Sequence record: DRR723986_6770
Strand: one strand, 5' to 3'
DNA: 52,187 nucleotides
The notes below the pieces were generated by a model. The model ran no database searches and was not told the DNA's origin. It worked only from the letters and a program-made list of their open reading frames with translations. This document shows, piece after piece, positions 4,755-21,616 of the stretch. Position numbers and translations under genes: made by a program. Every line of letters begins with the position of its first letter. Position 1 is the first letter of the stretch.

Positions 4755-6479
4755 TCAATCAAATTTGATGTCTTTCACGTAGAGTTGCAAACTGCTCTTA
4801 TCGCGAAATACATTTTCTCTCATTTCAGCAACTATATCAAATCGCATTTTTCCGCGAAGCATATTTACGGTGGTCAAGTCAGGATCTTTGGTCCGATCTG
4901 CCATTCCAAATCCCAGACAAACCGGTGTAGTCACCTGACCATCCTGTACTATTTTGAACCTCAGATGCTTATCCTTTAAGACTGTCACATCTTCCGCGTA
5001 AACATTTGAGATTCGGAAAATTGGCTCTGTATTTCCTGGACCAAATGGCGCCATTTGCTTCAAGATATTATAAAACTTGTAATTAATCTGATCTAAAAGC
5101 AATTCATCGTCAACTTCTATCACTGGCTTGCGATGAACTTCCTCGATTCTACTCTTCACCACCGCTTCAAATTTCTCCTGAAATGCTGGTACATTTTCCA
5201 CCGGAAGTGTCAATCCTGCCGCATACATATGCCCTCCAAATTGGTCAAGCAAATCAGCACATTCTTCTATTGCTTCGTAAATATTAAAGTCCACAACCGA
5301 TCTGGCGCTTCCTGTAGCTTTGCCATTTGACTCCGTCAAAATAATAGTAGGTCGATAATACTTTTCAATACAACGACTAGCTACGATTCCAATTACGCCT
5401 TTGTGCCAATCATCTTTGAAGAGTACGGTAGAATTCCATTCTACCAATTCCTCCCGGGAAGCAATCATTTCAAAAGCTTCCTTAGTAATATTTTCGTCAA
5501 AATTCCTTCGGGTTGCATTCACTTCATCCACGACTTTGGCTCGCTCCATGGCGCCTTCTAAGTCTGAAGAAATGAGTAATTCCACCGAAGCTTTTGCATG
5601 CTCGAGTCGTCCGGAAGCGTTAATTCTCGGACCAATTTTGAAAACCACATCAGAAATCCCAATGTCCTTTTCGAGATTGCTACTTAGCATTAATGCCTTC
5701 AATCCTGGACGTGGAGTATTATTCAATCGATCCAGGCCGTAATAGGCAAGAATTCTGTTTTCTCCTGTAATAGGAACGATATCGGCAGCGATACTCACCG
5801 CAACCAAATCCAAATAGGCGTCCAACTGGGAACTTTCCATCCCGCGCTTCATGGCAATAGCTTGAATCAGTTTGAAACCAACGCCCGCACCACTCAATTC
5901 CTTATATGGGTAATCACAATCCTTACGCTTGGCATCCAAAACTGCCACTGCCGCGGGAAGCTCCTCGCCAGGCGTATGGTGATCACAAATGATAAAATCA
6001 ACACCTAATTTAGTAGCCAAAGCCACCTTTTCAATTGCCTTGATCCCGCAATCGAGCGCGATAATCAACTTAATATCATTATCTGCTGCGAAACGAACGC
6101 CCTTCTCAGAAATACCGTAACCCTCTTTGTAACGATCTGGAATATAAAATACCACATCAGGGTAGAAGGTTTTCAAAAATCCATACATCAGCGCAACTGC
6201 AGTCGTGCCATCCACATCATAGTCTCCATAGACCATAATCTTTTGCTCCATAGCAATGGCTTCCTGAATTCTATCCACAGCCTCCCTCATATCCTTCATC
6301 AGAAAAGGATCGTGAAGCATCACTAAGGAAGGGCGGAAGTAACTCTTCGCCTGCTCAAAACTCTCCACCCCTCGGTTTATCAGCATATTGGCCAATGTCG
6401 GATTGACATTGATCTCCTTGCTCAGCTGATCTATCGCTGGTTGTGAGGTTTTGGGCTTTTGTTTCCAGAGGTACTCCAT
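4755..6479 (-). CDS. recJ: Single-stranded-DNA-specific exonuclease
   Basis: DHH family motifs GDYDVDG, DCG, DHH, RINASGR, GSARS and GGH. Confidence 0.95.
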
Positions 6480-7809: not shown

Positions 7810-8571
7810 TTAGAATGATTTGATAATATCTACGAAGTCACGGGACTTCAACGATGCTCCACCGATCAATCCTCCATCTACATCAGGCTTTGCGAAAAGC
7901 TCCTGAGCATTCTTTGGATTACAGCTACCTCCATAAAGGATGGAAGTGTTATCAGCAATGTCTTTTCCGTATTTAGAAGCGATGTGTCTTCTCAAGGCCG
8001 CATGCATGTCCTGAGCTTCCTCAGAGCTTGCTGTTTTGCCCGTACCAATTGCCCAGATCGGCTCATAAGCAATTACGATCTTGGAGAAATCCTCAGGACT
8101 CAAGTCAAAAAGACCTTCTGTCAATTGGAATTTCACATTTGGCTCATGGGTACCTGCAGTTCTGATTTCAAGAGATTCCCCACAGCAAAAGATTGGAGTC
8201 AAGCCATTGGCAAGCGCAAGCTTTACCTTGGTAGCAAGCATCTCATTGCTTTCTTTGAAATATTCACGGCGCTCGCTATGACCAATGATCACATATTGTG
8301 CTCCAAAAGAAGCTAGGATCTTTGCAGAAACTTCACCTGTGAATGCTCCAGCTTCCTTATCAGAACAGTTCTGAGCTCCGATGAAAACACCTTTTGCTTG
8401 TCCTATAAGTTTTTTGACTGGGAAAATATGTGGGAAAGGTGGGTTAAGCACAGCGATAGCTTCGCCAGAATGCTCGTCCTTCATCATGTTTAATATTTCG
8501 GAAGTAAGGGTCTGACCTTCTTCGAAGGTCATGTTCATTTTCCAGTTGCCGGCTACGATTTTCTTACGCAT
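7810..8571 (-). CDS. tpiA: Triosephosphate isomerase
   Basis: Motifs [24 protein letters not shown] and GGASL. Confidence 0.98.
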
Positions 8572-18056: not shown

Positions 18057-18683
18057 TTAAATATTCATTTCATGTGCCTTATTCACCAGCTCGATTCTCG
18101 AGCTAACCTGCAGCTTCAAGTGGATGTTTTTGCGATGGGTCTCTATAGTTTGCTTGCTCAAATTGAGCATTTGAGCAATTTCTTTATTTTGAATACCATC
18201 TTTGATCAGATGAATTATTTCTGTTTCGCGACGCGAAAGTTTATAGCGGGAGCGGAATGCATCAAAATATGCACCTTGTAGAGCCTGTTTTTTTACTCGG
18301 TCAAAATTCAATACATGGCGACCTTCATAAACTTCACGAATAGTAAAAATTAACTCATCCGGATCAGCATCTTTTAGTATAAAGGCATCAGCCCTCTGAT
18401 CGATGCATTTTTTGTAAATCTTCTCCTCATCGTACATCGAAAGGACAATCACCTTTAGATGGGATAAGTTTTCTTTGCAATATTCCAAAACTCCAAAGCC
18501 ATCCATGATTGGCATATTCAGATCGGTAAGAACCACATCTACCTCATTTTCTTGCAGATAATTGCATAGCTCTTTGCCATTGGGGAATATATCGGTAACT
18601 AAAAGATCATCCTCTTCTTCGAGAATTCCTTCAATTCCTTTTGCAAATAATTTGTGGTCATCAGCCAGGGCAATCCTGATCAT
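18057..18683 (-). CDS. NarL/LuxR-family response regulator
   Basis: Receiver domain (ADDH, LTDLNMP, LSM, FILK) followed by a LuxR HTH (LSRRETEI..NKEIA..TIETHRKNI). Confidence 0.93.
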   Translation of the reverse strand: MIRIALADDHKLFAKGIEGILEEEDDLLVTDIFPNGKELCNYLQENEVDVVLTDLNMPIMDGFGVLEYCKENLSHLKVIVLSMYDEEKIYKKCIDQRADAFILKDADPDELIFTIREVYEGRHVLNFDRVKKQALQGAYFDAFRSRYKLSRRETEIIHLIKDGIQNKEIAQMLNLSKQTIETHRKNIHLKLQVSSRIELVNKAHEMNI

Positions 18684-18738: not shown

Positions 18739-19494
18739 CTAATTTGGCAAGGTTAAAGTGATTTCTGTTCCTTTCCCAATAACAGAATTCAGTTCAAATT
18801 GACCCCCAATAGTCTCCATTCTTTTCCTGAGATTGAACATTCCACTGCCCTGCGAGTCTTGGGAAGTATCAAAGCCTTTTCCATCGTCTTTGATTAAGAT
18901 ATGCTTACTATTCCCATTTTCATAGATGCTAACGTGAATTTTATCAGGAGATGCATGTTTGATCGCATTATTGAGAGATTCTTGGATTACTCGAATTAAC
19001 ACAAGTTTGTGGTCTTTGGGTAAATCCAATAGTTCCAAATCAGCCTCTAGAGACGCTTCACAGAAGCCTGTATTTTGAATCCTCTCCAATTGCTGGGCTA
19101 TGAATTCATTGATACTAAGCGTTTCTACCCAATCAAGATTCAGTTGTTTGGATAATCCACGCACTTCTTGAATAGCCTGACTGAGGATTTCTTTCCCTTC
19201 TTCCCGTTTGTTTTCTTTGAGAGAACCAAAGTTCAGCTTAGCAAGAGAAAGTAATTGACCTATGTTGTCATGCAGCTCTCTACCTATATATGTTAAAGTT
19301 TCCTGTTGGATTTCATTTTCAATATTTAGTAAGGTTTTTTCATGCTCAGATTTGATTTGATCCATTTTTTGACGGTTTTGTACCTGCCGCTGTCTGTGGA
19401 TAAAAACCATGGAAATAACGAAAGTGGACATGATCCCACCCAGAAATAAGGTGGCAAAAATGATAACGTAAATCTGGTCTTCAGTTGGATTCAT
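18739..19494 (-). CDS. NarX/DesK-class (HisKA_3-type) histidine kinase with one N-terminal TM helix and no sensor domain
   Basis: H-box RELHDNIGQ, N-box ESLNNAIKH, DDGKGF and GSGM. The ATG at 19494 overlaps the 3' end of the upstream membrane-protein gene. Confidence 0.9.
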   Translation of the reverse strand: MNPTEDQIYVIIFATLFLGGIMSTFVISMVFIHRQRQVQNRQKMDQIKSEHEKTLLNIENEIQQETLTYIGRELHDNIGQLLSLAKLNFGSLKENKREEGKEILSQAIQEVRGLSKQLNLDWVETLSINEFIAQQLERIQNTGFCEASLEADLELLDLPKDHKLVLIRVIQESLNNAIKHASPDKIHVSIYENGNSKHILIKDDGKGFDTSQDSQGSGMFNLRKRMETIGGQFELNSVIGKGTEITLTLPN

Positions 19495-20239
19495 AAGATG
19501 GTTCTTTTTCAAATTGTATTGGCAAAAAAGGAGAGGCAATAGTCAATGTCAAAACTCCCAGATTCATTAAGGTCATAAAATTGCCAATATCCTGGAGGAA
19601 TTTACCTAACACAGGGTTGACAAAATATAGGTATAACAAAGTAACGGAGGAGATATATGACAAAGAAAATGTGAACATAATAAATGTCATCAGCCAAAAG
19701 GAGATCAGTTTCAATGGATTGCTTTCCAAATATTGCTCTTGGGTGATAATTCCAATGAAATAAAGGCCGCATCCAATTAAAATCATATTTGCACCTAAAG
19801 CAAATATGATGGGTTGATGTAGATACAGCAATTCCATGCCTGTAAGCTGAAGAAATAAGATAACGGCTAAGAAGGCATACATCATCCAGGTAATATATCT
19901 CTTTTGGGAGGGAGCCAACCACATTCTGATCAGTCCTAAAAAAAGCAATGCACCAATCTGCCTTTCTGAAACATTATAAAGCCATAGATTAAACCGTGGA
20001 TATTCAATGTTTCCTAAAAAGGCATTAACTGATTTTTTAAACTCAAAGTTATAGTTTGTATAAGCACCTAGGTTCTCATAAGAAACTGTAAACGCCAAAA
20101 TAATAAATGGAAACAAAAACTTAATGTTGGTTTTCTGACTCTTGGGTAGCTTGATAAAAAAAATCAATCCCACCATCACTAATAGGTTTGAGGAGATGGT
20201 GAACCAGTGGTTAAATGCCTCCAACAATCTACTGTCCAT
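19481..20239 (-). CDS. Hypothetical polytopic (about 7 TM) membrane protein, paralog B
   Basis: About seven hydrophobic segments; aligns end to end with 20318-21097. Confidence 0.85.
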   Translation of the reverse strand: MDSRLLEAFNHWFTISSNLLVMVGLIFFIKLPKSQKTNIKFLFPFIILAFTVSYENLGAYTNYNFEFKKSVNAFLGNIEYPRFNLWLYNVSERQIGALLFLGLIRMWLAPSQKRYITWMMYAFLAVILFLQLTGMELLYLHQPIIFALGANMILIGCGLYFIGIITQEQYLESNPLKLISFWLMTFIMFTFSLSYISSVTLLYLYFVNPVLGKFLQDIGNFMTLMNLGVLTLTIASPFLPIQFEKEPSYESN

Positions 20240-21099: not shown

Positions 21100-21495
21100 T
21101 TAGGAATCAGTTGGTTCTGGATCACAATATGGAGGGCATAATACACCATTGTTTTGATAATCCTCTTCGGGATTTTCCAAGGTAATTTGATCTTCGTTTA
21201 GGTTAGCCGCTCTCATTACTACAGTTAAAGCACCCGTTAATTGTTCCACTTCGTTTGGGTGATATTTAGCTGCTACTTCTTCTGTATATTCAGTGATATA
21301 AAACTGAATACCTCCTTTTTTAGGATCTTTATCAGCTTTTGCCAATAAACCCTCTAGAGTTTCTCTGTTGAAAAAAATCCAATTTGTTTGGTCGATTTTA
21401 TCCTTGCCTTTTTTGTCCTTGGCTGGCTTTCCTTTCTTCACTTCCTTACTATACTTTAACTTCATACTTTCGAAGTCTTCTTTTGAAATTTTCAT
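21100..21495 (-). CDS. Small hypothetical protein with C-terminal CPPYC motif
   Basis: 131 aa with no signal peptide; ends NNGVLCPPYCDPEPTDS, 2 nt before paralog A. Confidence 0.85.
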   Translation of the reverse strand: MKISKEDFESMKLKYSKEVKKGKPAKDKKGKDKIDQTNWIFFNRETLEGLLAKADKDPKKGGIQFYITEYTEEVAAKYHPNEVEQLTGALTVVMRAANLNEDQITLENPEEDYQNNGVLCPPYCDPEPTDS

Positions 21496-21584: not shown

Positions 21585-21616
21585 AAAAAAGGAGCGAGTA
21601 CACTACCCGCTCCTTT
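21585..21616 (-). terminator. secDF terminator
   Basis: Hairpin AAAGGAGCG...CGCTCCTTT with an A6 run (U-tail on the minus strand). Confidence 0.75.

Follow-up and report, generated by a model that had tools for sequence, protein, structure and literature searches.

A family of small Bacteroidota proteins with a conserved C-terminal Gly-Pro hook, encoded with a seven-helix membrane protein in a four-gene signalling cassette

The window, a stretch of 52,187 nucleotides, carries on its minus strand a compact group of genes that begins with a small-protein gene and ends with a response regulator gene. We use FAM as the label for the family of the 131-aa small protein and 7TM for the seven-helix membrane proteins encoded next to it. 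The features are listed below in the direction of transcription.

21588..21616, minus strand: terminator-like hairpin, located past the secDF stop and ahead of the FAM start (13 pairs, 6 of them G-C, and a T-rich tail; a consensus match only)
21100..21495, minus strand: FAM small-protein gene, an ORF of 131 aa whose product belongs to an unnamed Bacteroidota family
21124..21153, minus strand: codons of N115 to C124 (N-N-G-V-L-C-P-P-Y-C), the C-terminal hook with its cysteine pair, as read from the codons
20318..21097, minus strand: gene for the cognate, stand-alone 7TM protein of 259 aa, starting 2 nt past the FAM stop
19481..20239, minus strand: gene for a second 7TM paralogue (252 aa; 48% identity with the first) that no FAM gene precedes
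18739..19539, minus strand: gene for a single-pass, sensor-less histidine kinase of 266 aa (Pfam HisKA_3, 9.3e-07, and HATPase_c, 1.6e-12)
18057..18683, minus strand: gene for a NarL/LuxR-type response regulator (Pfam Response_reg, 1.5e-23, and GerE, 9.6e-17)

Since the terminator-like hairpin separates secDF from FAM, the cassette is probably transcribed as a unit by itself. The two 7TM genes are 78 nt apart, and the kinase ORF overlaps the end of the second; the true kinase start is probably an internal Met (MNPTED...), with which the overlap is retained. The kinase has one hydrophobic segment, and LiaS is among its weak NCBIfam matches, at 1.4e-15 and well short of the cutoff. The other neighbours in the window encode SecDF, uridine kinase, Ham1, a LOG-like protein, a class II tRNA synthetase and a GFO/IDH/MocA oxidoreductase, and there is no protease, ABC exporter or RiPP maturase among them. 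A long-leader RiPP precursor of the NHLP or Nif11 type was rejected for FAM, given the housekeeping character of the neighbours and the lack of any NCBIfam family at E<=1.

The original prediction, made from the sequence of the small-protein gene, had placed its only two cysteines in a C-terminal NNGVLCPPYC that follows an acidic linker, and the ORF and its codons bear this out. Residues N115 to C124 read N115-N116-G117-V118-L119-C120-P121-P122-Y123-C124, the codon of C120 lies at 21136-21138 and that of C124 at 21124-21126, no other Cys is found in the 131 aa, and the acidic stretch LENPEEDYQ stands just ahead of the motif. The spacing of the pair is C-x3-C, not C-x2-C. The description of a Lys-rich N-terminus without a signal peptide was equally accurate, the N-terminus of FAM containing no hydrophobic segment.

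No Pfam or NCBIfam family was recognised for FAM in searches at E<=1; the sub-threshold Pfam rows were at chance level (DUF4374, whose 14 bits fall short of the cutoff of 25, and cyclophilin at E 0.13). A word-indexed search yielded 130 homologous proteins at E<=0.001 among 139 candidates, the named ones all from Algoriphagus or Cyclobacteriaceae, and their public names are "hypothetical protein" or "molecular chaperone DnaK". HSP70 proteins consist of an ATPase and a substrate-binding domain and reach about 600 aa or more. An identity of FAM as DnaK/HSP70 was rejected on account of its 131 aa and the absence of HSP70 among the Pfam matches at E<=1, and for the same reasons the "DnaK" names are a propagated misannotation. 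An exhaustive HMMER scan of 1.84 billion representatives returned just 28 proteins at E<=0.001. The named members of these distant clusters, all "hypothetical", came from Echinicola, Penaeicola, Belliella, Mongoliitalea, Cyclobacterium and a Lewinellaceae metagenome-assembled genome (MAG); their consensus was N-G/A-G-x-h-C-P-P-x-C, frequently at the extreme C-terminus, and two distant members carried S-P-P-N in place of the motif and no Cys. Structure searches of the ESM Atlas with FAM and with the 7TM protein gave unnamed Bacteroidota clusters only.

Among the matches listed, 117 of 120 family members contained C-P-x-x-C, and the three others were two fragments, of 107 aa and 81 aa, and a protein in which Trp takes the place of the first Cys. 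The motif lay 1 to 8 residues from the C-terminus in 116 of these 117 members, and its pair constituted the sole Cys residues in 99 of them. Gly was found three positions before the first Cys in 111/117 and Tyr seven positions before it in 109/117. The residue after the motif Pro was P in 56, Y in 42, F in 17 and H in 2, so that the second Pro is not invariant. Comparison of homologues for an invariant N-x-G..CPPxC, as had been proposed, supported the Cys-Pro-x-x-Cys core within the listed members and not the second Pro, and in wider homologues both Cys were missing from 11 of 25. The Asn-Gly dipeptide, near which cleavage of the tail had been envisaged, was present in only 18 of the 117 members, which speaks against processing at that site.

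In the genus alignment G117, C120, P121 and C124 were invariant or nearly so, and the remainder of FAM was equally conserved from Met1 onward; in the wider alignment G117 and P121 were invariant. The C-terminal motif is the most widely conserved portion of FAM. Within the genus, C-P-x-x-C occurred in the last 16 residues of 80 of the 83 proteins encoded just upstream of 7TM genes, against 4 of 725 other ORFs of the same loci, and its occurrence is far from chance.

AlphaFold2, with a 42-sequence alignment, modelled FAM as a single confident domain (mean pLDDT 91.3, pTM 0.81), in agreement with the alpha/beta core previously proposed. The Lys-rich N-terminal part lies within this predicted domain (pLDDT 92-95). 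Towards the C-terminus, pLDDT was 85 for residues 101-110, 89 for 111-120 and 74 for 121-130, and a short strand was predicted at residues 118-120. Since residues 111-120 are ordered, the model packs the tail against the domain as far as the first Cys, and this part would not be a free peptide. The idea that the tail is released as a cyclic peptide found no support, as the motif region is part of the confident predicted fold and genes for a protease, exporter or maturase are lacking nearby.

Searches with the FAM model returned no convincing relative. The best Foldseek E value was 1.2 against the PDB and 0.33 against BFVD, VIA-align gave no match at Z>=2 among 48,161 representative chains or in the re-alignment of 627 Foldseek candidates, and in profile searches of PDB sequences FAM had no match better than E 0.34 and the 7TM protein had no match at all. 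The absence of a fold match does not prove that the predicted FAM fold is new. Since the fold has no known relative, no function could be borrowed from structure. A thioredoxin- or glutaredoxin-like C-x-x-C protein was rejected in view of the C-x3-C spacing, the absence of a thioredoxin-type Pfam match, the different order of secondary-structure elements and the lack of a fold match.

FAM, a stand-alone 7TM protein, a single-pass HisKA_3 kinase and a NarL-type regulator form a four-gene signalling cassette that is conserved in several families of Bacteroidota. The genus collection comprised 74 loci, the best of them 100% identical, from Algoriphagus winogradskyi DSM 15360. The 7TM gene directly followed FAM for 76 of 80 Algoriphagus FAM genes, mostly at a gap of 2-17 nt. 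Exceptions in the genus were a locus with a gap of roughly 700 nt ahead of the kinase, an artefact in which a run of N merged the FAM and 7TM ORFs, a locus in which FAM is followed by an N-terminally deleted second FAM copy and then by the 7TM gene, and one contig with FAM in a different context. With HK for the kinase and RR for the regulator, the commonest architecture was FAM-7TM-HK-RR, the window belonging to the type FAM-7TM-7TM-HK-RR; FAM-7TM-FAM-7TM-HK-RR and cassettes with up to four 7TM genes were also found.

At the scale of the phylum, the FAM profile matched in 25 of 401 sampled genomes, among them 5/5 from the genus. The order FAM, multi-TM protein, HisKA_3 kinase was found in 20/20 loci sampled across the phylum; a simple ORF picker gave 19 of these, and the 7TM gene of locus L042, whose ORF had been dropped, was recovered by the 7TM profile. 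In the 19 the membrane protein after FAM had 5-7 segments and about 205-275 aa, and a NarL-type regulator came next in 18 of the 20. The genes flanking the cassette otherwise differed by lineage. All 21 cassette kinases inspected (21/21) had a single hydrophobic segment. The 7TM profile matched in 83 of the 401 genomes, including 24 of the 25 that were FAM positive. A full-text literature search, judged from its listings, yielded no description of the cassette.

Neither of the two 7TM proteins had any Pfam or NCBIfam match at E<=1. The neighbour of FAM had been called a 7TM protein, and the product of the gene 2 nt downstream is indeed modelled as a seven-helix membrane protein, AlphaFold2 giving seven long helices (pLDDT 91.3, pTM 0.88). 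The helix arrangement of the model was like that of GPCRs and microbial rhodopsins at Z 11-13, values that may mirror just a common helical layout, and the best Foldseek match had an E value of 0.064. An N-out/C-in topology was assigned to the window protein by the Lys+Arg loop count (12 vs 4). Similarly, 21 of 22 partner 7TM proteins had more Lys+Arg in loops 1, 3 and 5 plus the C-tail, with one tie, regardless of the N-terminus of the partner protein. In a 22-sequence alignment the 7TM family had no invariant residue of catalytic type, including no invariant His or Cys, and F181 and W182 were the only near-invariant residues. In an ESM Atlas structure search, the membrane part at the N-terminus of one hybrid kinase cluster could be aligned with the 7TM model (TM 0.57). 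No FAM-7TM or 7TM-kinase fusion was found for either family, which is weak evidence.

C-P-x-x-C was present in 14 of the 25 FAM profile matches across the phylum. The 11 without both Cys keep N-x-G-x-h-x-P-P, or a close variant, and the cassette. A further sample consisted of 20 loci around 7TM matches without a strong FAM match. In 17 of these a kinase followed the 7TM gene, and in 17 a same-strand gene for a protein of 125-367 aa lay just upstream of it. In this small search, eight of those 17 upstream proteins matched the FAM profile, with E values from 4e-7 to 3e-4. Of four non-matching upstream proteins compared with the FAM profile by hhalign, the one of locus L144 was supported (92%, E 5e-7), and those of L139, L128 and L142 were not.

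Upstream proteins from outside the genus showed Pro-Pro in the last 16 residues in 19/32 cases (11/380 among other ORFs), C-P-x-x-C in 9/32 (0/380) and [N/D]-x-G-x3-P in the last 20 residues in 16/32 (4/380). Because the Cys-less homologues keep the Asn/Gly...Pro-Pro motif, the Gly...Pro(-Pro) hook is the phylum-wide hallmark of the protein encoded ahead of the 7TM gene, and the Cys pair is a lineage-specific addition to it. Two homologues, at 7961-8476 of locus L036 and 7977-8465 of L046, share an extension of about 23 residues past C-P-P-x-C that ends in ...IVDKG..G...V, so the hook is not always terminal.

Export signals were not uniform. Judged by eye, 7 of the 25 wider homologues had a lipoprotein signal, one had an N-terminal TM segment and 17, the window FAM included, had neither; the extra upstream proteins split likewise. 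Hook proteins with a lipoprotein-type signal or an N-terminal TM segment were seen in other families, in loci L037, L041, L047, L050, L051, L126, L130, L136, L142 and L144, and none in the Algoriphagus proteins. Cys-bearing forms were found both with and without export signals. Since the export signals differ and the predicted topology of the partner 7TM proteins looks the same, hook homologues seem to lie on opposite faces of the membrane, and this compartment mismatch lowers confidence in a single docking mode.

The distances between FAM proteins and those between their 7TM neighbours were correlated over 74 FAM/7TM/kinase triples (r 0.76), and the partial Mantel r with the kinase partialled out was 0.60, a value reached in 0 of 999 permutations; the related genomes in these tests are not independent. 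When the type of upstream tail (CPP, CP[Y/F/H] or none) was placed on a maximum-likelihood tree from a quick search with 103 7TM proteins, 18 changes were required, against a mean of 42.8 for shuffled labels, and 0 of 200 shuffles were as low. Where a locus has two pairs, their order could be swapped among species, each tail type remaining with its 7TM clade. FAM-7TM pairs thus duplicate and diverge as units. Conserved gene order, small gaps and co-divergence uphold the tie to the adjacent 7TM protein that had been proposed. Co-divergence and the clustering of labels fit cognate pairing, and tandem co-duplication alone could also yield both. Of the 20 7TM columns with the highest mutual information with tail type, about 12 lay on the predicted outer face, an exploratory measure that is confounded by phylogeny and loop variability. 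The second 7TM protein of the window (19481..20239) sits in a clade elsewhere preceded by FAM genes of the CP[Y/F]xC type; as this FAM-less protein groups with partnered ones, a second FAM gene was probably lost in the window lineage.

In gene content, the cassette agrees with accessory-dependent (intramembrane-sensing) two-component systems, having a sensor-less kinase, a membrane accessory protein and a NarL-type regulator. In LiaFSR and VraTSR of Firmicutes, a HisKA_3 kinase with almost no extracytoplasmic part relies on membrane or accessory proteins from separate genes and signals to a NarL-type regulator. The cassette resembles them in that its kinase has no sensor domain and is encoded with a membrane accessory protein and a NarL-type regulator. 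It differs in its accessories, one of them receptor-like with seven helices and the other a hook protein that is soluble or lipid-anchored, both without a known family, as well as in the one TM segment of the kinase and in the phylum. The 7TMR-DISM and 5TMR-LYT modules are 7TM receptor modules fused to bacterial signalling domains. The proposed use of a multi-helix membrane bundle as input to a histidine kinase is common to them and the cassette, whereas in the cassette the bundle is a polypeptide by itself, for which neither a Pfam match nor a fused form was found, and has a dedicated hook protein. MgrB, a membrane peptide of roughly 47 aa, acts directly on PhoQ, and its conserved Cys could link signalling to redox. 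As in MgrB-PhoQ, a small Cys-containing protein is encoded with a signalling system, for which a modulator role is proposed here; unlike MgrB, FAM is a soluble domain of 131 aa paired with a 7TM intermediary, and the two share no sequence or fold relation.

Our preferred reading, which we regard as probable though by no means assured, is that FAM is an accessory or co-sensor subunit of the four-component cassette, paired with the 7TM protein through the hook, and that the 7TM protein relays to the kinase and on to the regulator. FAM would bind its cognate 7TM protein at roughly 1:1, a ratio suggested by the tight translational coupling of the two genes. The C-terminal hook (Y-x-N-x-G-x-h-C-P-P/Y/F-x-C) may be the contact or tuning element. 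The 7TM protein would then signal to the kinase inside the membrane, and the kinase would phosphorylate the NarL-type regulator. In Algoriphagus and some other lineages, the Cys pair may staple the hook through a C-x3-C disulfide or a shared metal site, and a hook so stapled could make the FAM-7TM contact sensitive to redox state or metal.

A more daring form of this idea, to which we give only tentative credence, sees the 7TM protein as a GPCR-like receptor with a protein-borne ligand. The Gly...Pro-Pro hook would insert into or cap the 7TM bundle, and its occupancy would be relayed in the membrane to the kinase; the partner would be cytoplasmic or exported depending on the lineage, and in Algoriphagus the C-x3-C staple would be gated by redox or metal. 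If the mechanism of the preferred reading holds, a receptor-like 7TM protein with a dedicated partner would be a widespread means of supplying a sensor-less kinase with its input, and the cassette would offer a tractable model, in bacteria, of signalling by ligand hooks and 7TM proteins. At minimum, the "DnaK" annotation error is corrected, and two new protein families are defined together with their linkage.

Among other explanations, the Cys120/Cys124 pair may itself be the input, through a reversible disulfide or through binding of Cu, Zn or Fe across a dimer, which would make the cassette a redox or metal sensor. We consider this doubtful. The near-universal C-P-x-x-C of the listed members (117/120), its invariance in the genus alignment and the frequency with which it holds the sole Cys pair (99/117) all favour it, as does the absence of an export signal from FAM, which would leave the cysteines normally reduced and available; an oxidoreductase gene also follows the regulator in Algoriphagus. 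However, 11/25 wider homologues do without both Cys and keep the cassette, Cys forms occur both with and without export signals, and the genes downstream of the cassette vary by lineage. Moreover, zinc-ribbon and zinc-hook sites employ four Cys/His ligands, in one chain or across a dimer, and two Cys alone are insufficient for a usual Zn or Fe-S site.

FAM might also be a co-transcribed passenger that has its own function and stands outside the sensor, as an output of the two-component system or simply as its neighbour. This would accommodate the compartment mismatch of the homologues, which argues against a single docking mode, and the binding of FAM to the 7TM protein is one that we infer. 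We judge it unlikely all the same, because FAM is the first gene and not a downstream target, because the FAM-7TM adjacency holds across families while the other neighbours change, and because the pairs duplicate together, with swaps of order in which the tail type stays with its 7TM clade.

A role at the level of translation is very improbable. Arrest peptides tune the translation of secA, yidC or secDF, and those of the SecM/MifM/VemP/RAPP type carry a C-terminal arrest motif that unmasks a downstream start through mRNA structure. By analogy, Pro-Pro codons near the end of FAM might stall ribosomes, with relief by EF-P, and so tune the coupled translation of the 7TM gene. The motif lies a few codons before the stop, with the 7TM start mostly 2-17 nt beyond, and the Pro-Pro tail is common to otherwise divergent upstream proteins, with or without signal peptides. 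Against this, the junctions had no excess of RNA structure relative to shuffles (z -0.11 for the window junction and an average z of -0.14 across 76 loci); in the minimum free energy structures, base pairing involved the 7TM start codon at 19/76 loci and joined it to motif codons at 12/76. In addition, Y, F or H replaces the second Pro in 61/117 members, some homologues continue for about 23 residues past the motif, and the conservation of the flanking Cys, Gly and Tyr, together with the modelled packing of the motif, points to a role of the protein itself.

The Agr locus consists of the precursor AgrD, the membrane peptidase AgrB, the kinase AgrC and the regulator AgrA; Agr-type systems have a LytTR-type regulator and a multi-pass kinase of the AgrC type. 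The gene layout of the cassette superficially recalls agrD-agrB-agrC-agrA, since each combines a small protein that carries Cys in its C-terminal region with a polytopic membrane protein, a kinase and a regulator, and the conserved motif of FAM lies 1-8 residues from the C-terminus in 116/117 members. A FAM tail that is cut, cyclised through Cys, exported and sensed by the 7TM-kinase pair is nonetheless highly unlikely, and the idea of a cyclic-peptide precursor fails every available test: a Pfam search at E<=1 gave no family for the 7TM proteins, hence no AgrB or peptidase family, and these have no conserved catalytic-type residue; the kinase is a single-pass HisKA_3 protein and the regulator is of the GerE type, not LytTR; no exporter or maturase is encoded nearby; Asn-Gly is rare (18/117); all 131 aa are conserved and are modelled as one fold, motif region included; the motif shows conservation, unlike the hypervariable cores that determine pheromone specificity; and the Cys pair is dispensable, being missing from many homologues.

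Some further variants of the cassette were noted. In A. lutimaris a second hook gene (5471-5893 of locus L119) adjoins the first and lacks the segment from the Lys-rich part to the GGIQFY strand; this copy may be decaying. Two kinase genes were present in the cassettes of loci L061, L065, L100, L051 and L137, arranged as FAM-7TM-HK-7TM-HK-RR in A. boseongensis and as tandem HK-HK elsewhere. Algoriphagus-like cassettes were also found in MAGs labelled Planctomycetota, Limnohabitans and Reyranella (loci L062, L076, L083, L114, L116, L121 and L122), where they most likely reflect binning contamination rather than transfer.
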